A stretch of 64,000 bases of DNA from Candidatus Latescibacterota bacterium. GTDB taxonomy: Bacteria; Latescibacterota; UBA2968; UBA8231. Position numbers and translations under genes: made by a program. The notes beneath the pieces were generated by a model, which saw only the letters and a program-made list of their open reading frames with translations, did no database searches and was not told the DNA's origin. Within the stretch, counting starts at the first letter, position 1, and every line of letters begins with the position of its first letter. Below are positions 38,324 through 60,668 of the stretch, piece after piece. The stretch lies in the NCBI GenBank assembly GCA_965200315.1, contig OZ241362.1, forward strand, positions 3,680,001 to 3,744,000, written 5' to 3'.

Positions 38324-38400
38324 TGGCGGGGACGACGAGACTCGAACTCGCGACCTTCGGCGTGACAGGCCGACGTTCTAACCAACTGAACTACGCCCCC
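38324..38400 (-). tRNA. tRNA-Asp(GTC)
   Basis: GGGGGCGTAGTTCAGTTGGTTAGAACGTCGGCCTGTCACGCCGAAGGTCGCGAGTTCGAGTCTCGTCGTCCCCGCCA; 77 nt, encoded CCA. Confidence 0.97.
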
Positions 38401-49105: not shown

Positions 49106-49139
49106 AGGGCCGTTCGTCGACGGGCGAACGGCCTTTTTA
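49106..49139. terminator. Terminator between convergent genes
   Basis: AAGGGCCGTTCGTC..GGCGAACGGCCTTTTT. Confidence 0.75.
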
Positions 49140-50210
49140 TTTGTGTACGCGCCACAGCAACACCAAGGCCAAGACGGCGAACAACAGGTTGGCTATCCAC
49201 GCGCCTAGCCAAGGCGAGAGGATTTGATTCCAACCGAGGGCTTGGCCGGCCTTGACGCAACTGTAATAAACAAAGCAGATCAGGACCCCCAAGCCGAAGC
49301 TGTTGGCCAGACCGGCGCGGCGGGCGTTGGCACCGAGAATTGCGCCGAGGGCAATGATGATGAAGCTGGTCAGGGGAAAGGATATTTTCAGGTGCAAATC
49401 GACGCGCTGGCGCGCGGCGTCCTCTCCGTTGAGCGTGGCGCGGGCGATGTAGTCGGCCAGCTCGGCGTAGCTCATTTCCTCGGGGTCCTTCTGCTGGCGA
49501 GCAAAGTCGCTGGGAAGCAACGACAAGCTCGGCAAGGATAGGGTATCAAAGGAAGAAGTCGCCACGGCTTCGTCCGCGGCAAAGTGAAAGCGGCGGCCTT
49601 CAAAGAGCACCCACGTGCCCTCCCGCCACTCCATGCGCCGAGCCACCGTGCGCTCCAGCGGCGCGTTGTCGTGCAGCCGCTCCCAAGACACTTCGTCGGC
49701 GCGTTGCCGCCCCGCATCGTAGCTGCGGGCGTACAAGAACTGGTTGCCCGCATCTTGGAGCAGGACTTGGCGGCGAGACCCATCGCTGCGATGGTAGGAC
49801 TTAATCTCATCGCTGATTTGATTGTACCGATAGGTCGCAGACGGCACCACCCAATCGGTAAAGAAAAAGGCCGCGACCGCAACGGCGAGCGCACACGCCA
49901 AGACCGGGGCCAGTAGGCGATACAGACTAATGCCAGTAGCCTTCATGGCGGTGATTTCGTTTTGGCGCGCCAAGCTAGTAAAAGAAAAAAGCGCGGCGAG
50001 CAGCGCGGCGATGGGCAGGGTCAAGATGAGCCAGTACGGGAGCCGATAGACATAGTAGAGTAAGATCTGCTTGGGACGAGCTTTAAAGTCGATAAACGTG
50101 TCGATGTTTTCGGTGAGGTCGATAATCACCGCAATGAGCAGCAGACTGACCACGGCCATCCCCAGACACAACAGAAAGCGGCGCGTCAGATAGAGGTCGA
50201 GGGTGCGCAT
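49137..50210 (-). CDS. lptG: LPS export permease LptG-like
   Basis: LDLYL, NEITAMKATGIS, KISFP, AWIANLLF. Confidence 0.85.
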   Translation of the reverse strand: MRTLDLYLTRRFLLCLGMAVVSLLLIAVIIDLTENIDTFIDFKARPKQILLYYVYRLPYWLILTLPIAALLAALFSFTSLARQNEITAMKATGISLYRLLAPVLACALAVAVAAFFFTDWVVPSATYRYNQISDEIKSYHRSDGSRRQVLLQDAGNQFLYARSYDAGRQRADEVSWERLHDNAPLERTVARRMEWREGTWVLFEGRRFHFAADEAVATSSFDTLSLPSLSLLPSDFARQQKDPEEMSYAELADYIARATLNGEDAARQRVDLHLKISFPLTSFIIIALGAILGANARRAGLANSFGLGVLICFVYYSCVKAGQALGWNQILSPWLGAWIANLLFAVLALVLLWRVHK

Positions 50211-50211
50211 C

Positions 50212-51510
50212 TCAGGCTTCTTTCGTCCCTCGGCGGCCAGCGCGGTCGTACGCGACCACCCGCAACAGCCCCCATCCGACGAGAGCCAAAACCCCATTGG
50301 GTGCCCACATCGCCAACGGCGGTGGAATATAGCCGCGGTCGGCCAACTCCTCGCCGCCGATGAGGAACATCCAGTAGATCCAAAAGAAGAACAGGCTGAT
50401 GCCGACAGAGACGGCCGCGCCGCGCCGGCGAATCAGCGCACCCAATGGGGCACCGACCAGCGCGAAGACCAAGCAAGCGGCCGGGATGGATAGCTTCTTG
50501 TGAATCTCGACCAAGTACTCGTTTATCCGCCCCGCGCGGCGGTCTATATGCCGCCACTGTCGGCGCAGGGACTCGACCACCTGTTCCCCTTCTCTCTCTA
50601 GCTCGCTGGCCGTAGAGTCGGCAAACTGGCTTTGGTGTAGTTCGAGGTAGCGTGCGGCAATCGAATCGAGGCGGCCGTAGGCGCGCTCTTGCTCGCGCCG
50701 CCGCTTTAGCACCAAGCGGTGCATGGACGCAATGTCTAGCTCGCGATCGCTGCGGTAGGACGAGGGGCGGTGTTCGTAGCGGCGGTGCTCATCCTTGATG
50801 TGCAGCACTTGACGGGCAAAAGTGCCGAAGAAAAAGCGTTCCTCTTGGCCGGCTTCGACGCGCTGGACATGGCCCTCCTCCAGTTCCAAGCGGATGTAAG
50901 CCCCATCGCCCAACAGCGCGAGGCGGCCCCTAGGGGCGTGGACAATCACCGGCGGCCCGGGGCGCGAGGCGTCGTAGAGTGTGATGCCGGCCAGTTCGTT
51001 AGTCTCCGGGTCAATCTGGCGGATCAGTACGTGATAATCGCCCAAGTCGGGTATGAAGACCCCTTCCTTTTCCCGCAGCACCAAGGCCGCTTTGGTCCGT
51101 TGCAAGCTCGATGACAGAACGCGGGCTTGGTGGTTCCAGTCCGGGAGAATCTGGTCGTTAAAAAGGACCATCAACAAGGTCAGCAAAAAAGCGGCTACCA
51201 GCACCGGCCGCAGGAGCAGCCAAAAGCTCACCCCGCAGGCTTTGGCCGCGATGATTTCCCCGTCGGCAGCGAGGCGGGCAAAGGCCATGATCACGGCGAT
51301 GAGTACGGCCATGGGCACGGCTAGCGCCACGATCCAAGCCAAGTTGAAGAGCAAAAGTTGGAGTGCCGCCAAGAGAGTTAGTCCCTTGCTCAACACTTGG
51401 TCCATCGTCTGCAATACGACGTCGATTAGCAAGATGAAGAGGATCAGCACAAAGCCGAGCGCAAAGGGCCAACCGTGCTCTTTGAGCACATAGCGGGACA
51501 GGGTCGTCAT
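50212..51510 (-). CDS. lptF: LPS export permease LptF-like
   Basis: LSRYVLKE, DGEIIAAKACGVS, EIHKKLSIP, MWAPN. Confidence 0.85.
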   Translation of the reverse strand: MTTLSRYVLKEHGWPFALGFVLILFILLIDVVLQTMDQVLSKGLTLLAALQLLLFNLAWIVALAVPMAVLIAVIMAFARLAADGEIIAAKACGVSFWLLLRPVLVAAFLLTLLMVLFNDQILPDWNHQARVLSSSLQRTKAALVLREKEGVFIPDLGDYHVLIRQIDPETNELAGITLYDASRPGPPVIVHAPRGRLALLGDGAYIRLELEEGHVQRVEAGQEERFFFGTFARQVLHIKDEHRRYEHRPSSYRSDRELDIASMHRLVLKRRREQERAYGRLDSIAARYLELHQSQFADSTASELEREGEQVVESLRRQWRHIDRRAGRINEYLVEIHKKLSIPAACLVFALVGAPLGALIRRRGAAVSVGISLFFFWIYWMFLIGGEELADRGYIPPPLAMWAPNGVLALVGWGLLRVVAYDRAGRRGTKEA

Positions 51511-51681
51511 GGGTCGAAAGGGTTACGGGGCTGTGGCGCTCAGCACTCAAGGCACCTTGTTGCAAGCGGCGCGCACTCGGACGAGCACGGGCCTAGTTCC
51601 CTCAAATATAACGACTTAGGCCGCCGTCTAAAAAATCACCCCCCACGCTGTGCAATAGGAATGATTTTTGCAAGAGCTTCC

Positions 51682-51710
51682 TTGAAATAATTGCAGCCAC
51701 GTGCTATGTT
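51682..51710 (+). promoter_or_regulatory. Sigma70 promoter for sprA leader
   Basis: TTGAAA-17 bp-TATGTT with extended -10 TG. Confidence 0.6.
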
Positions 51711-51716
51711 TTCAGG

Positions 51717-52008
51717 TAGTTGCCCGCTTCGTCTGGGCAGCGTCCCCCTGTTTTTGGGTTTGGAGACCGCCTATCGCGTTTGGTTAATACAGAAGCCGCT
51801 CGGCGCATTGCTTTGGCTGTGGCCGAATCATCAGTGAAGGCTTCTGAGTCGTTTCCGCTAAACCTCAATTGAAATTGAAAGACTGCTCTTTAATTGAGAC
51901 TGACGAGCAGCACGCCGAGCGCATTCGGCTATAGCTCGCTATTTGACGCCGCCAGCTCCTGCCCTTTAGGGGCTTGCGAGCACGTCAAACGATAGGCGTC
52001 GATAGGTG
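51717..52008 (+). ncRNA. Candidate structured cis-regulatory leader RNA
   Basis: Closing helix 51768-51776/51990-51998 enclosing four stems; see findings. Confidence 0.55.
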
Positions 52009-55000
52009 TGAATTTAGAGGTGTTTCTCCGCTTTTCCCGCCAAGCGTTTTCCTCGTGGCTGTGTGTTTGCTTGCTCTCGGTAGTGTCGTACGCCGAGCCT
52101 AGTCTGCACTTCGAGCCGCTATATGGCCTGCTTTCCCAGCGCTTTGCAGTCCCTAGCCAAACTGCCTTTGGGGCTGGCCAACCGCTCTTGCCCGCCCCCG
52201 ACCGTGCGCCGATCTCATACCAAGCCGCAGTGGACTCCATGGGAGTGGCCCACTACGGCCGCCGCGTCAGTGGATTCCCCGAGGGACCAACGGTCGCCGT
52301 GGCTCTAGACGACTATCTCCGCATAGAATACCAAGCTAAGCACCGACAACTTTGGCGCCAGCAAATCCGCCGCGACTTTCGCAGCACAGCTTCCAAGCAG
52401 CGCCAGCGCAGGGGCAGCCGCTTTGAGTGGACTGTGCCCTTTTCCGCGCCCAAGCCCCTGCGGCGCTTTATCGGCGACGAAGGCCCCAGCCTCGCACTCA
52501 ATGGTTCGCGCACCATCATCATTTCTGGCAAGAGCGAGTGGACCGACGGCGAGGTACAGACCTCGTTTGGACGCAGTTCCAAGTTCCCCTCGCTGGGCAT
52601 CGAACAGGAATCCGATTTCACGGTAGAAGGCAAAGTCGGCGAGCTGATCAACATACGCATCGACCAAGACACCCAAAACTTCGGCTCGGCCGTTGGCTCC
52701 AATTTGGGCGATCAGCTATCCAACCAGATCAAGCTCGATTACGAAGGCGAGGAAGATTCCATATTCCAAGAGGTGCAGGCCGGCAACACCACCCTAGAGC
52801 TGCCCAATACGCGCTTCGTCGGCTTCCGGCAGAAAAACAAGGGGCTCTTTGGCATCCGCGCTAAAGGACACGTCGGGCCGCTGACCTTTACGACCGTAGC
52901 CAGCCACGAAAAGAGCAAATCCAACCGCCAGACCTTCAAGGGCGGAGCGGCCATCGACACCCTCCAACTCAAAGACTACCAATACATCCGCAACACGTAT
53001 TTCTTCTTGCACGAGTTCTACCGAGCCCACCTCCCCGACTTCCGCCGGCTGTTGAACGGAGCGCAGTTTGGCCCGGAAAACTTTGTCGATATCAGCCGCC
53101 TCGAAGTCTATATCAACGACTTCAATACGCGAAATGACGCCGAACTGTTCGCCAAGCCCGGTGTTGCGTGGGTCGATCCGTCCGATTCCCTCTCCACCAT
53201 CGAATGCTTTGACGCGGCGGGCAATCTTCTGCGCAACAGCGGCTGCTTTGAGGAGGGGACCTGGCACCGGCTCGACCCGGACGACGACTACTCGGTCGTG
53301 GCCGAGGCGGGTTATATCATCCTCAACAGGCCCGTATCCGATCCCTATGCCATGGCCGTGCATTTCAAAACCAATGCGCCGGACTTCGACGGTACGCTCC
53401 AACAAGAGACGACGCGGCTCAAAGCCGGCGCAGAATCCGACTCCTTGTACCTGAAGCTGATCAAAGCCCGCAATCCCCGCCCGGGTTTTCCCACTTGGGA
53501 TCTAGAGTGGAAAAACGTGTACCGCATTGCCTCTGGGTTTTCCACTGGCCGCCGCTTCGATCCCAAGACTTTGCAGATCGATATCGCCAAGGAAGTGCCC
53601 GGCCAAGAGGACCAACTTTCTCAGCAGGGTCGCTCCTATTTGCAGATTTTGGGTTTGGACGAGCGCGGCAAAGACCCCGGTAGCGCGTCCGACCGCGTCA
53701 TCGACGCCGACTACATAGGGCTGGACGACATCCGCGGGCACTTGATTTTCCCCGACCAGCGGCCCTTTGATCCGCGCTCCAACAAATATCGCGGCCTACT
53801 CGACGAACCCGTCTCCGCCATCTACGACGAGCAGCAGCAGCGCGCCCAGATCGAGGCCAGCCGCTACAAAATCCTCGTCCGCGCCGCCTCCTCGGAGCAG
53901 CGCATCCGGCTGGGTGGTATCTTCGGCGGCGTCCGGCCCGAGACCGTCGAGGTCCAGCTAAACGGCCGATCCTTGACGCGAGACACCGACTACCGAGTTG
54001 ATTACACGGGCGGCGTGACGTTTATCGGCTCGGTCGCTCAGGAAGTGGCCGACCCCGGCGCGGACTTGGAAATCTCCTTTGAATCCGAGGACGTCTTCAA
54101 TATCGGCAGTCAGCAAAAGACCCTGTTGGGCCTGCGCACCGAGTACGAGTTCTGGGGTGGCGACGGGCGCATGGGCAGCACCATGATCTACAACAACGAG
54201 CGTTCGAGCGACCGGCGGGTGCGGGTGGGCAATGAGCCGACGCGCACGGTGATCTGGAACCTCGACTTGCGCGCCCGGCGCGAAGTGCCAATCCTCACCC
54301 GCGTCGTCGATATGCTACCGCTGGTCAAGACGGCCGTTCCCTCGGAAGTCACCCTTGACGCCGAAATCGCGCAAAGCCGCCCCAATCTCAATACCAAGGG
54401 ACGCGGCTACATCGACGATTTTGAAGACAGCGAGCGGCCCATTTCCCTAGTTGTCAACCGCACGCGCTGGGCACCTGCTAGCGCACCGGCTGGTGCGCGC
54501 TTCGGCGCGGAAAATCGCGCACATTTCATCTGGTACAATCCCTACAACGGGGTGCTGCGCACCGACATCTGGCCCAACCAAGAAGAGCAAATCGAAGCCC
54601 AAAACCGGCGCACCGACATCCTAGCCCTAGAGCTACTGCCGCGCCTCGAAGCCGCCGAGTCTTGGGGCGGAGTCTCCCTCGCCTTTTCGACTGTCAACGA
54701 CTTGTCCGAGTCCAAGTTCCTAGAGGTATGGGTCCGCGGCCAAGAGGGCACTTTGCACGTGAACTTGGGCGACCAAATAAACGAGGACTACATCGCCAAT
54801 GGCCGCCTCGACACCGAAGACGAGCCTTTCCCCGGGCAAGCCGCAGGGGATGGGTTGGTGTCGCGCGAGGAAGACGTGGGCATCGACGGCCGCAACGACG
54901 AAGCCGAGTTGAACCTCTACTTGCGGCTGCAAGACGCTGCGTTCGACACCACCCGCTCCCTAGCCGAGCGGAAGCAAGCCTTTGCCGCGCTCTACCCAGA

Positions 55001-58000
55001 CCCCGATCCCCTGCGCCCCAACCGCTCGCCCGACGACCCCGAAGGAGACAACTGGAAATACGACGCTCAGCACAAGAACGATTACAGCCACATCAACGGA
55101 ACCGAGAACAACAAAAAAGATGTCGAAAGCGGCGATCGCCCGGACACCGAAGATCTCAACAACAATGGCGTACTCGACCGACGCAACAACTACTACCACT
55201 ACGAAATCGACCTGTCGTCGAGCCATTACGAGATTGCCGGGACCCAAAACAAGGGCTGGCGGCAGCTCCGCGTGCCCCTGTTCGGCCCCCACGTCGAGCG
55301 CGTGGGCTTGCCCGACTCCACCCGCATCGAATACGCGCGCCTGATGCTTTCAAGCGAGCCACGGGCGGACTCAGCAGACACCGTGCGAACCGAGATCGCG
55401 CTCGTGGAAATCGTGGGCAACAAGTGGCAGGAAGACGAAGTAGTGCAGCTCGATGATCGCTTCCCGCTCGGCGACCGCGAGGCTCTCGACGTCACGGTCA
55501 TCGGCACCGACAAAAGCCAGAGCTACCGGCCGCCACCCGGCGTGAAGATCCGCCGCAACGTGCAGTCGCGCACCCGCGAACGCGAGCAGTCCCTCGTGCT
55601 GGCCTACGAAAACCTAGAGCCTGGTCACCAGATGTCGGCAACTCGAATCCTGACCCGCTCTGCCAATTACACCAACTACGAGCGGCTGCGCATGTACGTC
55701 TATGGCGATTCGAGCGGGACCATTGAATACGCCCACGGCGATTCGAGCGACTTGGTGCTCTTCGTGCGCTTTGGCGTGGATTCGACCAACTACTACGAGA
55801 CCATCAGCCCCATTTTTCCGGGTTGGACAGGGGGGCGCAAGGGCTGGAAGGGCAATCAAGTAGATGTGGATCTGCCGGTCATCTCCCAACTCAAGGCCCT
55901 GCTGCAATCCGGGCAGGCCGATACCACCACGGGCGAGTTCTATTACACCTATCGGGTAATTGACTCGCGCGGGGCACCGCTAGACGGCAAGAGCTTGATC
56001 TCTCAACGCGAGTTGGATGTGCTGCACACGGCGGGCTACGACCCCCAAGTCGAGCGCTTTTCCCTAGACCAAGTCTTTGCGCGGTCGGGCCTGCGCAGCG
56101 GCGAGCAAGCCATTTATCGGGTGCGCGGCAACCCGTCAATGCAGTCGATCAAGCAACTGAGCATTGGCCTGCGCAACCGCGCCGCAAACCGTGCGTACAG
56201 CGGCCGCATCTTCCTCAATGAGTTGCGCCTCGACGAGGCGCGCAACGATCCCGGGCTGGCCGCGTACGCCCAGATCAACACCAAGCTAGCCGACTTTGCC
56301 AACCTCGGCGGCAACGTGCTCTGGCGGCAGGAAAACTTCCGCAGCTTTACCGGCCAAGGCGGCAACAGTACAGACCGCGAAGCCGCGCTGTCGGTATCCA
56401 CCAACGCGCAAAAGCTCCTGCCGAGTAGCTGGGGATTTTTGATCCCGACCAAGGTAAATATCAGTCGCTCGACCAGCTTGCCGCGCTTCGGCCCCGGCTC
56501 GGACGTGGAACTGACCGCCGAAGAGAAGCTAGAGCAACAAGCCGTTCACTCCAAAGAATTCTACGACGTGTCCATCAGCCGGCGGCAGGGCAAAAACTTC
56601 TTCCTGCGCTGGACCCTCGACCAGATGAATCTACGGCTGTCTCATTCGCGCGAACACAGTTCGGACCCGGTGCGCCCGATCAACGAGCGCGAGGCCCAGA
56701 CGATGAACTTCAACTACAGCATGCCCCTGCCCAAACCAGAACTGCGGATCATGAACTGGCTGCCGACGTTCATGCCCAAGGGCTGGACGCGGATGAAGTT
56801 CCGCCCGCTGCCGACGAGCCTGACCTACGCGGTCAACGGCAGCCGACGCACCTCGCGGCTGCTGCGCCGCGGCGACGACCAGCCGACCGCACAGGAGGAC
56901 TTTACGCTCGTCGAAACCTATGCTTCTAAGCTCAATCCGCTCTCCGGTCTATCGGCCAACTACAACCTCAAAATCGACCGAGACTTGCGCAAAAAATTCG
57001 TCCCCGACAAGCGCAGCTTTGGGCGCGAGGTCGGGCGCAGACAAACAGCCGACTTGGGCTTTTCGCTGCGCTTAGTCTCGTGGCTGGACCAAAACTACAC
57101 CTTCAAGGCCAATTACGAAGAGCAAAATGATCCAGCGCAGCGGCGCGGAGCAGCCCCGATCGATTCGATCAGCGGCCTGCCGTTCAATACCCTTGAAATT
57201 CGCAACCAGAACGACCTGTCCGTACGCCTCAATTTCAAAATCCCAACCCTGCTCAAGACCTTGGGCCAGTCCCCGGCACAAAGCCGCAAGGCGCAACAGC
57301 GCGACGACCGAGACCGCAATCGAAACCGAAACATGCCAACCGCGAAGGAAGGCCAAGACGAACAGAAGCAAAGCAAAGACGACAACAAGAAAAACCAAGA
57401 CGAAGAAGAGCAAAGCAAAGCAAAGCCGCCGCAAGGCCCCAATATCCTCCTCCGCCTCGCTGGATGGACTGGCCGCCTCGTCGAGCCGGTCAACGCGAGT
57501 TGGCGGCGCAACACCAACTCGCGCCACTTCAATTTGCTGCACCGGCCCTCGCTTTCCTATCAACTCGGCCTTGAAGACACACTGCGGGTGCGGCAAGTGT
57601 CCCAAGGGCTGACCCACCAAGACAATTGGGCCCACACGTCCTCGTTTGAGACTGGCTCGGGGATGAGGTTGCCCTTTGGCATTAGCATCAAAGTCAACTC
57701 TAAGGAGCAGACCACACAGCGCAGCGGTGCTTCGCAGCAACGGCTGCGCTTGCGCAACGAGCGGACCTACCCGCGCGTGAGTCTTAGCTGGGGACGAGCC
57801 GACCGGATTCCGTTGATAAAGCGAGCGATCAACAGCGCACAGGTAAACGCGAGTTTTGAAACTTCGGAGGCCAGCGAGGGCGCGGGCAGCCTCGAGCCCG
57901 GACGCCTGCTCTCCGAGGAGACCAAGACCGAGTTTAGGGCGTCGTGGAATGGCCGTTGGCGCTGGGGACCGACCACGACCATCGAGCGCGTGCTCTCCAC

Positions 58001-58400
58001 CTCGGAGAGCCGCGATTTTGAACCAACTACTGGGGGAAGCGGCGGCGAGCAGCCCCTGCGCGGCACCCGCGACCGAGAGCAGGTGACCACCACCTTCAAG
58101 ATCACCCATAACCTCAAGTCGCGGCGACTGCCCCTAATAGGCCGGCTCAAAAGCGACGTCACCCTCAATTTAGAACAGAAGTTTGAAGGAGAAACGCGCT
58201 CCATCGCCACCGGCAACGAAGAACGCTTCACCAATGGCAAAGAGAACCGCTGGCGCACTCAGTTGTCCATGACCTACAATTTCAGCACGAATTTCCGCGG
58301 CGAGGGGCGGATTCGCATCGAAAACAACAAGGACCACCTCAGAGACAAGACGCGAAAAATCCGCGAAGTGCGGCTTTCGGGCACATTTTTCCTCCGCTAA
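52008..58400 (+). CDS. sprA: SprA/Sov-like type IX secretion outer-membrane translocon
   Basis: 2130 aa. NQIKLDYEGEEDSIFQEVQAGN..KGLFGI, TWDLEWKNVY, YIDDFE, PDTEDLNNNG, REQSL, NELRL; aromatic barrel end SGTFFLR. Confidence 0.85.
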   Translation: MNLEVFLRFSRQAFSSWLCVCLLSVVSYAEPSLHFEPLYGLLSQRFAVPSQTAFGAGQPLLPAPDRAPISYQAAVDSMGVAHYGRRVSGFPEGPTVAVALDDYLRIEYQAKHRQLWRQQIRRDFRSTASKQRQRRGSRFEWTVPFSAPKPLRRFIGDEGPSLALNGSRTIIISGKSEWTDGEVQTSFGRSSKFPSLGIEQESDFTVEGKVGELINIRIDQDTQNFGSAVGSNLGDQLSNQIKLDYEGEEDSIFQEVQAGNTTLELPNTRFVGFRQKNKGLFGIRAKGHVGPLTFTTVASHEKSKSNRQTFKGGAAIDTLQLKDYQYIRNTYFFLHEFYRAHLPDFRRLLNGAQFGPENFVDISRLEVYINDFNTRNDAELFAKPGVAWVDPSDSLSTIECFDAAGNLLRNSGCFEEGTWHRLDPDDDYSVVAEAGYIILNRPVSDPYAMAVHFKTNAPDFDGTLQQETTRLKAGAESDSLYLKLIKARNPRPGFPTWDLEWKNVYRIASGFSTGRRFDPKTLQIDIAKEVPGQEDQLSQQGRSYLQILGLDERGKDPGSASDRVIDADYIGLDDIRGHLIFPDQRPFDPRSNKYRGLLDEPVSAIYDEQQQRAQIEASRYKILVRAASSEQRIRLGGIFGGVRPETVEVQLNGRSLTRDTDYRVDYTGGVTFIGSVAQEVADPGADLEISFESEDVFNIGSQQKTLLGLRTEYEFWGGDGRMGSTMIYNNERSSDRRVRVGNEPTRTVIWNLDLRARREVPILTRVVDMLPLVKTAVPSEVTLDAEIAQSRPNLNTKGRGYIDDFEDSERPISLVVNRTRWAPASAPAGARFGAENRAHFIWYNPYNGVLRTDIWPNQEEQIEAQNRRTDILALELLPRLEAAESWGGVSLAFSTVNDLSESKFLEVWVRGQEGTLHVNLGDQINEDYIANGRLDTEDEPFPGQAAGDGLVSREEDVGIDGRNDEAELNLYLRLQDAAFDTTRSLAERKQAFAALYPDPDPLRPNRSPDDPEGDNWKYDAQHKNDYSHINGTENNKKDVESGDRPDTEDLNNNGVLDRRNNYYHYEIDLSSSHYEIAGTQNKGWRQLRVPLFGPHVERVGLPDSTRIEYARLMLSSEPRADSADTVRTEIALVEIVGNKWQEDEVVQLDDRFPLGDREALDVTVIGTDKSQSYRPPPGVKIRRNVQSRTREREQSLVLAYENLEPGHQMSATRILTRSANYTNYERLRMYVYGDSSGTIEYAHGDSSDLVLFVRFGVDSTNYYETISPIFPGWTGGRKGWKGNQVDVDLPVISQLKALLQSGQADTTTGEFYYTYRVIDSRGAPLDGKSLISQRELDVLHTAGYDPQVERFSLDQVFARSGLRSGEQAIYRVRGNPSMQSIKQLSIGLRNRAANRAYSGRIFLNELRLDEARNDPGLAAYAQINTKLADFANLGGNVLWRQENFRSFTGQGGNSTDREAALSVSTNAQKLLPSSWGFLIPTKVNISRSTSLPRFGPGSDVELTAEEKLEQQAVHSKEFYDVSISRRQGKNFFLRWTLDQMNLRLSHSREHSSDPVRPINEREAQTMNFNYSMPLPKPELRIMNWLPTFMPKGWTRMKFRPLPTSLTYAVNGSRRTSRLLRRGDDQPTAQEDFTLVETYASKLNPLSGLSANYNLKIDRDLRKKFVPDKRSFGREVGRRQTADLGFSLRLVSWLDQNYTFKANYEEQNDPAQRRGAAPIDSISGLPFNTLEIRNQNDLSVRLNFKIPTLLKTLGQSPAQSRKAQQRDDRDRNRNRNMPTAKEGQDEQKQSKDDNKKNQDEEEQSKAKPPQGPNILLRLAGWTGRLVEPVNASWRRNTNSRHFNLLHRPSLSYQLGLEDTLRVRQVSQGLTHQDNWAHTSSFETGSGMRLPFGISIKVNSKEQTTQRSGASQQRLRLRNERTYPRVSLSWGRADRIPLIKRAINSAQVNASFETSEASEGAGSLEPGRLLSEETKTEFRASWNGRWRWGPTTTIERVLSTSESRDFEPTTGGSGGEQPLRGTRDREQVTTTFKITHNLKSRRLPLIGRLKSDVTLNLEQKFEGETRSIATGNEERFTNGKENRWRTQLSMTYNFSTNFRGEGRIRIENNKDHLRDKTRKIREVRLSGTFFLR

Positions 58401-58435: not shown

Positions 58436-58801
58436 TTGTTTAATCAACGCGAGCAACGCGCACTCATTGGCCTGACAGCGGCTTTGCTCATCGGGATGCT
58501 CGTCGCCATCGGCGATTGGTATCGTCCCTCGCAGTCAGAGGAATTCAGCGTCGTGCCACGCGCAGTCGCTCCGCCGCCACCGCGCCAAGTGGCAGCCGCC
58601 GAGCAGGGGCCGCTATCGCTCAATTCGGCTACGGTAGAAGAATTAGTCGCACTGCCGGCAATCGGCCCCAAGATCGCCGAGCGGATCGTCGCCTTCCGCC
58701 GCGAGCGCGGTCCTTTTACACGGCTAGAGCAACTAACCGAAGTCAATGGCATCGGTGCAAAGACGCTAGAAAAGCTCCGTCCTTTGATCACAGTGGAGTA
58801 G
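58436..58801 (+). CDS. comEA: ComEA-like helix-hairpin-helix DNA receptor
   Basis: N-terminal TM; LNSATVEELVALPAIGPKIAERIV..GPF..VNGIGAKT. Confidence 0.88.
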   Translation: MFNQREQRALIGLTAALLIGMLVAIGDWYRPSQSEEFSVVPRAVAPPPPRQVAAAEQGPLSLNSATVEELVALPAIGPKIAERIVAFRRERGPFTRLEQLTEVNGIGAKTLEKLRPLITVE

Positions 58802-58824: not shown

Positions 58825-59718
58825 TTGAGATTGTTTGGATTTGGCAGGACAAAGGCCACTGGGATTCACATCAGCGGCCAGACCATGCGCATCGCCGCCC
58901 TAGACGCTGACCGCACTGGCGTCCGGCCGCTAGTCTTGACAGCCGAGGAGTTGGAGCGCCCCTTCGACCCGGTGGCTCTGAGCGACGAGCAGCAGCGACA
59001 AGAGCTAGCCACCAAGTTAGCCGCGCTCGCGGCGACCTATAACTTCGACTATAGCACGGCCTGTTTCTCGCTAGACCGGCGCTTGGGTCTCATTCAGCGT
59101 CGGCCCCTCGTGTCGGGGACTGAGCGCGAAAACCGCCAACAACTCCTGTGGGAAGCCGAGCAGCTTTTGACCGAAGACGCGAAGGCGTTTAGCTGTGATT
59201 TTGTGCTGACCTCCGAGTGGGGCTTTGTGGTGGCGGCGCGCCACCGCGCACTCAATGGCTACCGAGTCCTAGGCAAGGCCACAGCAGCCGGTCGGCTCGA
59301 CGTGGATCTAGTGCCTTTTGCCCTGTACAACGCCAGCGAATGCGCCAATCTGCTCGCCAAAGATACATTCTCGCTCCTGCTCTACGCGGATGTGAGCGAG
59401 GCTTGGCTCCTGCTAATAGCGGAGGGCGAGCTGTATGCACTGACCAGTTGCTGCTGGGAGCAAGAGGATGACGCGCCCGCAGCCTTAGAAGGCGCAGCGC
59501 GCAAACTGCTAAGTGCGGGCGGCAACAGCCCCCAACGCCTGTGGGGCGCCGGCTTCGTGTATTGGAGCGAGGGCTTAGCCGCGCATTTAGGGATGCCACA
59601 TTCAATCCTCGACCCACTCGCCGCCGTCAAACCCAAGCTGCTCGGCAGCACTCCGCCCGCACAGCGATCCGAGTATGCCATTGCCGTCGGGCTAGCTCAG
59701 CGGGGGTTGGTGCGGTGA
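58825..59718 (+). CDS. Divergent PilM-like protein
   Basis: TGIHIS N-terminus, WEAEQ, VDLVPFALYN, ends YAIAVGLAQRG. Confidence 0.65.
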   Translation: MRLFGFGRTKATGIHISGQTMRIAALDADRTGVRPLVLTAEELERPFDPVALSDEQQRQELATKLAALAATYNFDYSTACFSLDRRLGLIQRRPLVSGTERENRQQLLWEAEQLLTEDAKAFSCDFVLTSEWGFVVAARHRALNGYRVLGKATAAGRLDVDLVPFALYNASECANLLAKDTFSLLLYADVSEAWLLLIAEGELYALTSCCWEQEDDAPAALEGAARKLLSAGGNSPQRLWGAGFVYWSEGLAAHLGMPHSILDPLAAVKPKLLGSTPPAQRSEYAIAVGLAQRGLVR

Positions 59719-60668
59719 TCCGCGTCGAGCTTCTCGGTCGCCAACGCCAAGGGCGGTCGCCTTGGTCCAAAGCCTTGCTTTCGCTCCTAGTCGTCTGTGG
59801 CGGACTATACGGCACCCACCACTTCTTTCCCGCGCTGCCCGGGTCGTTTTTTAGCGCGAGTTCTGCCCTTATTGCCGCGGCGCAGCAAGAGATCGCACCT
59901 CCGCAAGAGACCATCCCAAGCTCCGAAGAGGTGATCTCTAGACCGGTGGAAGAAACCGCCTCCAAGCCTGCGGCGCAGCCAGAGACCGCCCACAGCTCTA
60001 CGGCAGAAGCGACTCCGAGTCCTGAGCAAGAGACCGCATCAAGCCCCGTGGTCCAGCAAGAAGCAACACCCCGTCCCAACCCAACGCCGTCCCAGCGCAG
60101 CACGGCCTGCCACCAAGTTATGTGGGTTGACGAACAGGTTCCCACCGGAATTCGCGTGGCTTCGCTGAATTGCAACTCAATCGGGGAATACTGGCTGGAG
60201 GGGACCAGCTCCTCGTACAAAACACTGCGCGAGTTTAGGCTGCGCTTGCAGGCATTGCCATCGCGGGTATCGTTTTCAATTTGGCGGGAGGAGCACACGC
60301 TGCGCTTTTCATTTCAAGGCCGCTTTCCCGAGCGAGATACCCCTCCACTCGCGGTCCTCTCGTCCAACCAAGCAGAGCAATTTTTGGGCAAAGTGGCCCG
60401 CTGGGCCGGCGCCAGTGGCCTAGACAGCCTGTCGTTCGAAGAGCCCATCCATAAGTCCTTGTCGCCGCTGCGTACGCACCAGCGGCAAAAATTGCGCGGC
60501 ATTGGCTCCCCTCAGCAGATCGACTCCTTCTTGCAGCAGTTGCAACAAGCCGAGGCGGCCGCGACTCTCGGCGAGGTTTTGCTCGTGCCCGTCAAAAGCG
60601 ACGAGCGCGGCTGGGTCAAAGCACGGCTCTATGCGGCCGTGGACATTATTGTGGACACCCCCCGATGA
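59715..60668 (+). CDS. PilN-like membrane protein
   Basis: Starts VIRVELL (cf. INLL), single TM, Pro/Glu linker; GTG overlaps the pilM-like stop. Confidence 0.5.
   Translation: MIRVELLGRQRQGRSPWSKALLSLLVVCGGLYGTHHFFPALPGSFFSASSALIAAAQQEIAPPQETIPSSEEVISRPVEETASKPAAQPETAHSSTAEATPSPEQETASSPVVQQEATPRPNPTPSQRSTACHQVMWVDEQVPTGIRVASLNCNSIGEYWLEGTSSSYKTLREFRLRLQALPSRVSFSIWREEHTLRFSFQGRFPERDTPPLAVLSSNQAEQFLGKVARWAGASGLDSLSFEEPIHKSLSPLRTHQRQKLRGIGSPQQIDSFLQQLQQAEAAATLGEVLLVPVKSDERGWVKARLYAAVDIIVDTPR

Follow-up and report, generated by a model that had tools for sequence, protein, structure and literature searches.

A conserved leader element of sprA in a family of Latescibacterota with the potential to fold back on the translation start

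The window, a stretch of 64,000 nucleotides from Candidatus Latescibacterota bacterium (contig OZ241362.1 of assembly GCA_965200315.1), contains a long untranslated region upstream of sprA that a preliminary description had read as a large, multi-stem, switchable RNA. The question raised by this locus is whether a regulatory RNA is encoded there and, if so, which part of it does the work. Our preferred answer, to which we would give about an even chance, is that it is a new leader for translational control of sprA that acts by folding back on the start region, and that its functional core would be a short block (51762-51787) and not the multi-stem body. The leader is conserved, its block is linked to sprA in single copy, it has the potential to pair with the start region, and it is assembled together with the gene in RNA libraries. 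We infer formation of the helix in vivo, repression of translation by it and some means of lifting that repression. The features of the locus are as follows.

51682 to 51710, + strand: promoter-like site from a consensus scan, with a -35 hexamer, a 17-bp spacer and a TG-extended -10 hexamer
51719 to 51741, + strand: 5′-proximal hairpin, for which RNAalifold pairs columns 5-12 with 21-28
51742 to 51761, + strand: pyrimidine-rich linker, C/U-rich before the core in all lineages displayed
51762 to 51777, + strand: invariant 16-base block, with 12 of 16 positions invariant in 23 leaders from 9 genera
51768 to 51782, + strand: 5′ strand of the conserved long-range helix (14 pairs)
51790 to 51846, + strand: stem 1, of 8 bp with an inner 5-bp helix, the first hairpin after the core
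51862 to 51989, + strand: variable insert with stems 2, 3 and 4
51990 to 51998, + strand: copy 1 of a tandem 10-base repeat, the earlier-drawn 3′ closing strand, a perfect partner in this genome only
51993 to 52008, + strand: 3′ strand of the conserved long-range helix, holding the SD-like element 52004-52008
52020 to 52022, + strand: sprA start codon GTG, invariant in 24 of 24 sequences
52020 to 58400, + strand: sprA-like ORF, type IX secretion translocon (Pfam SprA_N, E = 2.5e-23)

The gene downstream of the leader is SprA, the type IX secretion translocon: the Pfam SprA_N domain scored 83.2 bits against a cut-off of 27 and spans residues 1022-1503 of the 2130-aa ORF. In type IX secretion, the outer membrane is crossed through SprA, a very large pore. 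The start region had been drawn at 52008, and the real start is at 52020; 4 of the 24 same-genus sequences have a non-start codon at 52008, and in 2 more the codon there is in the wrong frame. The SD-like element 52004-52008 is the sole one ahead of the true start and lies 12 nt before the GTG. The pairing of positions -20 to -4 relative to 52020 with the 16S tail was calculated at -9.1 kcal/mol, which is in the top 17% of 3117 long ORFs. Shine-Dalgarno sites are strongly used by this genome, as judged from the same ORFs, and therefore the burial of one such site should matter.

The promoter that had been placed about 300 nt upstream of sprA was recovered as the sigma-70-like match with a TG extension at 51682-51710, in a scan that returned 2 sites against 0.3 expected. 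The identity of this site was 0.92-0.96 within the genus and 0.80-0.89 in a divergent subgroup, and matching promoter boxes were also found upstream of the core in other genera. The proposed long leader is likewise co-assembled with sprA in RNA libraries from a single study in which DNA carry-over is possible: one contig starts at 51745, crosses the leader and reaches 53000 inside the gene, where the compared stretch stops, and another covers 51755-52019. No RNA contig from the four runs of this study covers 51658-51744, which is compatible with a transcription start near 51717 but is not evidence for it. A scan of 51400-52200 for a transcription attenuator found no terminator hairpin and U tract within the leader, the sole terminator-like site being at 52029-52046 within the ORF, with 1.1 expected by chance. 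There is no second copy of the leader region in the rest of the genome. A second, ECF-type promoter formed by the ends of the block was also considered and rejected, because the best-conserved bases would fall in its spacer and the RNA contigs begin upstream of it.

No known RNA motif had been recognized in the leader, and an Rfam scan agreed: across the window, only a tRNA at 38327 passed its gathering threshold. Relaxing the search to E = 10 in 51450-52150 gave only a chance match to CRISPR-DR25 (E = 6.1), whose 15.6 bits fall short of the threshold of 36, and 10 orthologous loci gave nothing relevant, only a chance match to a snoRNA (E = 0.23). Searches for CsrA (PF02599) and Hfq (PF17209) found 0 matches in this single-contig genome, which is 94.7% complete, while control genomes did match; a leader dependent on either protein was rejected because neither gene was found. 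The evidence here points to no ligand or protein for the leader.

The fold of the leader in this genome was predicted by running RNAfold on the + strand of 51700-52030. All of the helices previously listed are present, the minimum-energy fold shows the closing helix with four inner stems, and the hairpin given as 51721-51739 is also present and extends to 51719-51741. The two alternative closing pairings both exist, at -120.3 and -119.1 kcal/mol, 1.2 kcal/mol apart, and the preference for the + strand was upheld, in that G-U pairs and one-sided changes to G-U suit this strand only. An excess of stability over shuffled sequences was not found: the + strand had z = -1.27, with 8 of 100 shuffles equally good, and the minus strand had z = -2.48.

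A plain DNA search recovered the leader from all 30 same-genus genomes and from none of 30 others, and 24 full-length leaders from the genus, comprising 23 distinct sequences, were compared. Identity was 0.90-0.97 in the 5′ part and the start region, 0.70-0.83 in the DNA upstream of the promoter and 0.58-0.82 in the insert. The 9-bp closing helix as drawn was 75.4% paired and is specific to this genome, its pairs to 51770, 51771 and 51775 being standard in 1, 14 and 8 of the 23 sequences, respectively (the partner of 51770 is 51996). The helix 51768-51782/51993-52008, which is the one picked by RNAalifold (covariation term -0.9 kcal/mol), was paired in 98.4% of cells over the 23 distinct sequences, with changes that are G-U-compatible only. 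The upstream strand is thus able to bind the SD/start region as had been suggested, and the pairing once called alternative is the conserved one; bases 51994-51998, the last five of repeat copy 1, are part of it. A two-state switch with the closing helix is confined to this single genome. Covariation among the relatives' leaders was not above shuffles by any measure in the 24 leaders, with double changes in 2-3 pairs, and no covarying aptamer helices of the generic riboswitch kind were found in this set. The complementarity between 51797-51805 and 51913-51921 does exist and was 93.7% paired, with no double changes and no excess over shuffles; it was rejected as a second alternative pairing, which would also be impossible in species without the insert.

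The remaining structures differ in how well they are kept. The 8 pairs of stem 1 are all invariant in 23 of 23 sequences and are therefore uninformative on covariation. The 5′ hairpin shows C-G to U-G changes in 2, 3 and 5 sequences; in the predicted folds of other genera, hairpins of unrelated sequence are found at its position, and hairpins of different sequence come after the core. The insert contains indels of 6, 12, 13 and more bases, has a 6-base tandem duplication unique to this genome and is missing in 6 of 29 relatives, namely G019, G030 and four divergent species. In G019 and G030, which are natural deletions of stems 2-4, the conserved helix and stem 1 persist in the predicted folds. 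The idea of a large, multi-stem, riboswitch-like aptamer was not supported: its body is the least conserved part of the leader and is lost in those six relatives, and stems 2-4 would seem to be strain-specific filler for the most part. The conserved feature is one short, largely sequence-invariant block and not a set of covarying helices.

The 16-base block opens with an SD-like tetramer (51762-51765), followed 7 bases on by an AUC codon (51773-51775). A sequence model of the block gave exactly one match per genome in 58 of 76 genomes of the family, in 14 of 18 genera, and weak matches in 2 of 56 genomes outside the family. As evaluated by tblastn, sprA lies downstream at 10 of 11 loci found with the model and at 6 of 8 and 11 of 20 family loci found with the 16-base pattern, the loci without sprA being second pattern matches elsewhere, except for one at a contig end. 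The N-terminal 500 residues of SprA are 52-66% identical to those of this genome across the genera with tblastn figures, and the block is conserved between genera with unalignable flanks, including genomes that seem AT-rich at the loci read. In all genera, some 45-80 bp separate it from the -10 box upstream. This genome has 3 exact matches to the 16-base pattern, of which the other two are, by eye, apparently in coding sequence, and a phylum scan with this pattern gave no sign of a regulon, as none of the 22 loci retrieved from other families had sprA nearby. The helix does not account for why the 5′ half of the block is invariant. Two other roles were rejected for the block: an upstream ORF passing through it, for which the distance from an ATG in the -10 box is 0, 1 or 2 modulo 3 depending on the genus and in-frame stops occur, and pairing with 16S rRNA, for which the best energy of -23.0 kcal/mol was matched by 3 of 60 shuffles and needs genus-variable positions.

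The pairing between the core and the start region was also evaluated across lineages, with the start codons of other genera picked from ORF tables and with one locus (g5) that has no confirmed sprA. At least 8 core-to-start-region pairs were present in the whole-leader minimum-energy folds of 13 of 17 lineage representatives, whereas with a shuffled core at least 5 such pairs were present in 87 of 340 folds (26%). The helix was missing from the predicted folds of the divergent subgroup of this genus and of g18, g20 and g23. In most other genera, the bases equivalent to the conserved helix strand are predicted to pair directly with the ATG start codon. A lineage's own core and own start region paired at -16.3 kcal/mol, compared to -14.0 kcal/mol for cross-lineage combinations (permutation p = 0.0006 for 15 lineages, which are not independent); the same permutation on five control coding zones gave p = 0.58, 0.11, 0.17, 0.35 and 0.028, and the cross-lineage signal had p = 0.09 once four lineages were left out. 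When the core-to-start-region duplex was compared with zones in the coding region for 22 representatives, the empirical p was 0.012-0.03 for three same-genus leaders, both g3, one of two AT-rich g22 and one of five other g22, and 0.1-1.0 for the remaining 15. Chance complementarity is raised by the high G+C content and partial self-complementarity of the pairing segments. Taking the block model, the own-versus-cross permutation and the lineage folds together, the idea of translational control holds up in the family-wide comparison; as in fold-back leaders, there is an upstream segment complementary to the SD/start region in this genus and in 13 of the 17 lineage representatives.

In the mechanism that we favor, a 5′ untranslated leader of about 300 nt would be transcribed from the conserved sigma-70-type promoter, and the 3′ part of the core would pair over a long range with the sprA translation-initiation region. 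In this genus, the resulting helix would hide the sole SD-like element before the GTG and close a loop in which stem 1 is followed by an insert that evolves freely and here holds stems 2-4, and the likely effect is that sprA translation is held low or made conditional. In this genome, three substitutions have made the repeat copy 51990-51998 a perfect competitor, giving two near-isoenergetic folds, one with the ribosome-binding region free. It is a doubtful further step that the block is a dock for a factor (a ligand, protein, small RNA or 30S subunit) that decides the fold-back helix, with 51990-51998 as a decoy that makes the element bistable here.

We consider it unlikely that the leader is a true riboswitch or riboregulator, in which the block and its flanking hairpins would be recognized by a ligand, protein or small RNA and binding would set the fold-back helix. 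The invariance of 12 of 16 positions over 9 genera is more than a helix requires, the block is single-copy per genome and always with sprA, and no known RNA family matches, as such a sensor might have it. However, no covarying aptamer helices were found, the conserved part is contiguous instead of consisting of nucleotides dispersed in a fold, the flanking hairpins are free to vary in length, the single-contig genome gave no match for CsrA or Hfq, and the function of the gene suggests no ligand.

To the same small degree, we allow for a leader driven by the ribosome, in which the tetramer 51762-51765 would dock a 30S subunit, as a standby site, as a decoy or for a tiny frame from the AUC, thereby freeing the sprA start or protecting the 5′ end of the mRNA; the docked ribosome would cover the 5′ strand of the helix. 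The tetramer is invariant, its energy with the 16S tail is -6.4 kcal/mol (38th percentile, ordinary for a real site), and the SD tetramers of the 3117 long ORFs peak with the first base at -11, which is the spacing between the tetramer and the AUC. By eye, the frame from the AUC ends after 3-4 codons in several genera, but in other lineages its length is 6 codons to 20 or more. AUC is no normal start codon and no lineage has ATG in its place; g24 carries a codon there that is not near-cognate, one g22 genome carries AUA, and g16 has a spacer shortened by one base. The longer frame that crosses the block has no conserved start and contains in-frame stops, and control by a leader peptide would call for a conserved SD, start codon and frame, which were not found together. 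Furthermore, the tetramer is mostly paired in the predictions, with an unpaired probability of 0.00-0.46 compared to leader means of 0.37-0.45.

It is very unlikely that the block acts as a DNA-level operator, bound together with the copies of its 7-base heart by a transcription factor downstream of the promoter. In this genus, such copies are found inverted at 51770-51776 and direct at 51990-51996 and 52000-52006 and could aid looping, it is the sequence and not the pairs that is conserved, and the distance of about 45-80 bp from the -10 box is kept in all genera. However, the block is neither a palindrome nor a direct repeat, the other genera have no extra copies, the changes in the partner strand keep G-U pairing as expected for a + strand RNA, and the complementarity tracks the start codon as it alters between genera.

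Least probable of all is a long spacer with no regulatory structure, its 5′ conservation due to promoter-proximal constraint and short divergence and its complementarity to chance in G+C-rich sequence, which would fit the non-significant fold z-score, the absence of covariation within the genus, the many lineages that failed the zone test and the one control zone of five at p = 0.028, but not a block conserved among genera with unalignable flanks, in single copy and specific to sprA, or a helix in the minimum-energy folds of 13 of 17 lineages compared to 26% of shuffled-core folds.

The fold-back reading can be compared with known systems. In the rpoS mRNA of Escherichia coli, translation is kept low by a helix between the ribosome-binding region and a segment further upstream in the long 5′ UTR, and Hfq-dependent small RNAs open this helix. 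The upstream segment of the sprA leader is likewise predicted to pair with the ribosome-binding region of its own gene; in contrast to rpoS, with which it has no sequence or Rfam relation, its upstream strand lies within an invariant block opening with an SD-like tetramer, and an Hfq gene was not found here. The hok and tisB toxin mRNAs combine fold-back inhibition with ribosome standby sites and depend on an antisense RNA and on processing at the 3′ or 5′ end. The sprA leader shares with them a long-range pairing that would hide the start region, together with a possible waiting place for a 30S subunit further upstream, but no processing or antisense RNA was seen for it and its tetramer is not single-stranded in the predictions. 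The STAB-SD of Bacillus thuringiensis cryIIIA is a 5′ mRNA stabilizer that consists of an SD-like sequence without a start codon. The sprA leader is also long, with an SD-like element and no canonical start codon behind it, but its block is preceded by a hairpin, lies some 45 nt into the presumed transcript and has 12 further conserved bases after the tetramer. With the riboswitches in Rfam (lysine, cobalamin, T-box and others), it has in common the 5′ leader position and a possible competition of two pairings over the ribosome-binding region, but it matches no family and has no covarying aptamer helices.

Descriptions of how type IX secretion is regulated come from cultured Bacteroidota and concern transcription. 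Searches of literature text, exclusive of supplements, found no link between Latescibacterota and type IX secretion and none between sprA and T9SS and an untranslated region. The leader would add a candidate RNA motif for Latescibacterota, a phylum known from metagenomes only, and one short and well delimited enough for tests in vitro or in a heterologous reporter that need no culture of the organism. A family-wide, single-copy leader element able to hide the start would give a first indication that the SprA pore is controlled post-transcriptionally and, if it is true that the block docks a factor, the type IX secretion translocon would have its first dedicated riboregulator.

In the window, the intergenic region 51511-52019 separates two divergent genes, and the assembly around the window is a single contig of 5.36 Mb. 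The features of this locus are:

50212-51510, minus strand, LptF/LptG-type permease gene (ORF listing and domain search)
51682-51710, plus strand, sigma-70-like promoter with a TG extension, a consensus match that bears out the promoter proposed in the preliminary description
From 52020 (listed from 52008), plus strand, sprA-like ORF of 2130 aa (Pfam SprA_N domain), sprA being the gene for the type IX secretion (T9SS) outer-membrane pore

Upstream of the leader, the minus strand at 49137-51510 holds two neighbouring LptF/LptG-family permease genes. The minus strand also has a promoter-like site (51632 to 51605), which overlaps a block that is 0.97 identical in the genus (51600-51619) and probably serves the divergent gene at 50212-51510. 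The first ORF after sprA (58436-58801) matches Pfam HHH_3 (E = 1.9e-20) and encodes a small protein of the helix-hairpin-helix type, resembling ComEA; the next two ORFs (58825-59718 and 59541-60668) had no Pfam match.

All helices named in the preliminary description are present in the sequence at the coordinates given there, and RNAfold of 51700-52030 (plus strand) reproduced the overall fold, in which a hairpin is followed by a 9-bp closing helix enclosing four stems. It was found that 8 of 100 dinucleotide shuffles were as stable as the plus strand (z = -1.27), so that an excess of stability was not obtained, and the minus strand of the leader region gave z = -2.48; the predicted stability of the leader is therefore not unusual. 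An Rfam scan of the window at the gathering threshold gave no match for the leader, in agreement with the earlier view that it belongs to no known RNA family. The sole match in a permissive search of 51450-52150 was a chance CRISPR-repeat hit (E = 6), and ten orthologous loci had no Rfam match.

A plain DNA search recovered the leader from all 30 same-genus genomes, and 30 genomes of other genera in the class gave no match. The loci retrieved from 29 relatives comprised 23 full-length, 2 short, and 4 divergent leaders. In the same-genus profile, identity was 0.92-0.96 across the promoter and 51700-51800, 0.97 at 51840-51859, and 0.94-0.96 in the sprA start region, and it fell to 0.70-0.83 upstream of the promoter. 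The stretch 51860-51979, home of stems 2, 3, and 4, had an identity of 0.58-0.82 and many indels (of 6, 12, 13, and more bases), some of which removed one strand of stem 3 and left the other. A stretch of roughly 51862-51985 is missing from the leaders of relatives G019 and G030, as well as from the divergent subgroup of four relatives, which is about 67% identical. Pairs were counted in an alignment of 24 full-length leaders (23 distinct sequences), the six short or divergent loci being read separately. Stem 1 showed no variation in the 23 sequences. Among the 24 aligned leaders, only that of the window's genome has a 6-base tandem duplication (51869-51880), which falls in the loop and 5′ strand of stem 2. 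Because the resulting gap was aligned there, four stem 2 pairs had to be left uncounted in 22 sequences; stem 2 is nonetheless present in the predicted folds of relatives. A large, switchable multi-stem riboswitch is unsupported as originally drawn.

The proposed closing helix (51768-51776/51990-51998) is not a general feature, as it was 75.4% paired in the same-genus alignment: pair 51770-51996 was standard in 1, 51775-51991 in 8, and 51771-51995 in 14 of the 23 distinct sequences, with no compensating change in the 5′ strand. What had been described as an alternative pairing, 51768-51776/52000-52008, is the conserved one, and it is extended by 51777-51781/51994-51998. This long-range helix of 14 pairs was 98.4% paired in the 23 distinct sequences and was independently picked by RNAalifold. 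Eight pairs are invariant, five have one-sided changes, all via G-U, and one is off only through unpaired cells. Every wobble change is tolerated on the plus strand only, as had been argued. No whole-structure measure exceeded shuffles in the genus, and the RNAalifold covariation term was -0.9 kcal/mol; therefore, variation within the genus is too small to settle whether the structure exists. A second suggested alternative, 51797-51805/51913-51921, showed 93.7% pairing in the leaders that have both strands, and no double changes.

Only in the window's genome does the first repeat copy (51990-51998) compete for the 5′ strand with perfect complementarity, and the two enforced alternatives were nearly equal in predicted energy (-120.3 versus -119.1 kcal/mol). 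Pairing of this copy is predicted to free 52004-52008 from the long-range helix. Thus, the sequence does allow the suggested switch between two states on paper, but only in this genome. RNA-library contigs had zero base differences in the repeat-copy stretch.

The listed start at 52008 is a non-start codon in 4 of the 24 aligned leaders, and its frame is lost through 1-base deletions in 2 more, whereas the GTG at 52020 is invariant. The 16S rRNA tail of this genome is canonical, and Shine-Dalgarno tetramers upstream of 3117 long ORFs gave a sharp peak with the first base at -11. The only Shine-Dalgarno-like element before 52020 is 52004-52008; its pairing energy with the 16S tail is -9.1 kcal/mol (top 17% of ORFs), and it is embedded in the 3′ strand of the long-range helix. 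Shine-Dalgarno sites are used strongly, although no CsrA or Hfq homologue was found in this single-contig genome.

In the divergent subgroup (L028-L031, from G018, G015, G017, and G016), a 25-base insertion aligned at about 52044 supplies an in-frame ATG start; the predicted fold lacks the long-range helix, so the start region was remodelled there. Over its opening 60 bases (52020-52079), the sprA ORF had a DNA identity of 0.93-0.95, compared to 0.77-0.93 in the following coding stretches. A terminator-like hairpin with a U tract lies at 52029-52046, and RNAalifold predicted a G-U-rich hairpin spanning the start codon (about 52016 to 52033). RNA-level constraint inside this coding start is possible.

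A profile of the 5′ module located a 35-base core upstream of sprA in the loci of other genera, from which a 16-base pattern (51762-51777) was derived. The window's genome has three exact matches, the other two lying in apparent coding sequence (by eye, without ORF calls). Among 168 genomes of the phylum, the pattern adjoining sprA was confined to the window's family, and sprA was present at 0 of 22 fetched pattern loci from other families. A sequence-only covariance model from an alignment of 23 cores (9 genera) had exactly one match per genome in 58 of 76 family genomes (14 of 18 genera) and weak matches in 2 of 56 genomes outside the family, one being a locus already seen without sprA. Using tblastn, sprA was found downstream at 6 of 8 family pattern loci, 11 of 20 loci in a further set, and 10 of 11 model loci; the loci without it were second pattern matches elsewhere in the same genomes, except one cut by a contig end. 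In all genera inspected, promoter boxes are followed by a 5′ hairpin (its sequence unrelated between genera), a linker rich in pyrimidines, the core, and another hairpin, with about 60 to 250 nt between core and start codon. In the 23-core alignment, 12 of the 16 block positions are invariant, and a factor- or ligand-sensing element centred on this block is a rival, less likely reading of the leader.

In most genera, the sequence immediately 3′ of the invariant block is the reverse complement of that surrounding the start codon, giving potential helices of 7-12 bp whose differences between genera are G-U or two-sided. Duplex energies relative to shuffled cores gave z from +0.6 to -3.2. Against tiled coding zones, empirical p was 0.012-0.03 for three own-genus leaders, both leaders of lineage g3, and, in lineage g22, one of two AT-rich and one of five other leaders, and 0.1-1.0 in the remaining 15 of 22 representatives; a window-rank form looked better but picks the best among many overlapping windows. 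Whole-leader minimum-energy folds had at least 8 core/start-region pairs in 13 of 17 lineage representatives and 0-2 in four; after shuffling of the 20-base core, 87 of 340 folds had 5 or more pairs of this kind. Duplexes of own core and own start region were more stable, at -16.3 compared to -14.0 kcal/mol for combinations across lineages (permutation p = 0.0006, 15 lineages that share ancestry, with start codons outside the window's genus chosen by us from ORF tables). One of these, g5, has sprA unconfirmed by tblastn because its contig ends there. Five coding-region control zones gave p = 0.58, 0.11, 0.17, 0.35, and 0.028, and without four lineages the own-versus-cross result was p = 0.09. 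These computed tests are mixed but, on balance, positive.

A second rival is a ribosome-driven mechanism, because the block opens with an invariant Shine-Dalgarno-like tetramer (51762-51765) whose spacing to an AUC codon (51773-51775) is exactly the modal one of this genome. However, an upstream ORF from AUC is unsupported: the codon is never ATG in any lineage and is replaced in lineage g24 and one g22 genome, the spacer is 1 base shorter in lineage g16, and frame length varies from 3 to more than 20 codons (by eye). A longer frame that spans the block lacks a conserved start and is interrupted by in-frame stops. The tetramer is mostly paired in predicted folds, which counts against a simple standby site, and complementarity of the block to 16S rRNA was at chance level.

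Contigs assembled from four metatranscriptome runs, all of one study, span 51745-53000, 51755-52019, 51833-52831, and 51911-52352. Therefore, the leader from at least 51745 and sprA are on the same RNA-library contigs, which carry no 5′-end or strand information and may include DNA carry-over; a transcript start downstream of 51800, which would have argued against the leader, is not indicated.

The best-supported interpretation is a fold-back translational-control leader, preferred to the rivals already weighed and to a DNA operator or a leader without function. The conserved upstream segment would pair with the sprA ribosome-binding region, the long-range helix shutting a loop whose content evolves freely. 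The data show that the leader is conserved, is linked to sprA, and has the potential to pair in this way. We infer that this helix forms in vivo and represses sprA translation, and that some trigger exists.

The arrangement resembles the self-inhibitory rpoS leader or the fold-back and standby arrangements of toxin mRNAs; it matches no curated Rfam family. Literature searches, supplements not covered, returned no paper combining a Latescibacter* term with 'type IX secretion', or sprA, T9SS, and 'untranslated region', and a further search listed general type IX secretion papers only. We rate the sprA leader as a new and well-delimited motif that is particular to the gene of the type IX secretion pore within one family of an uncultured phylum.
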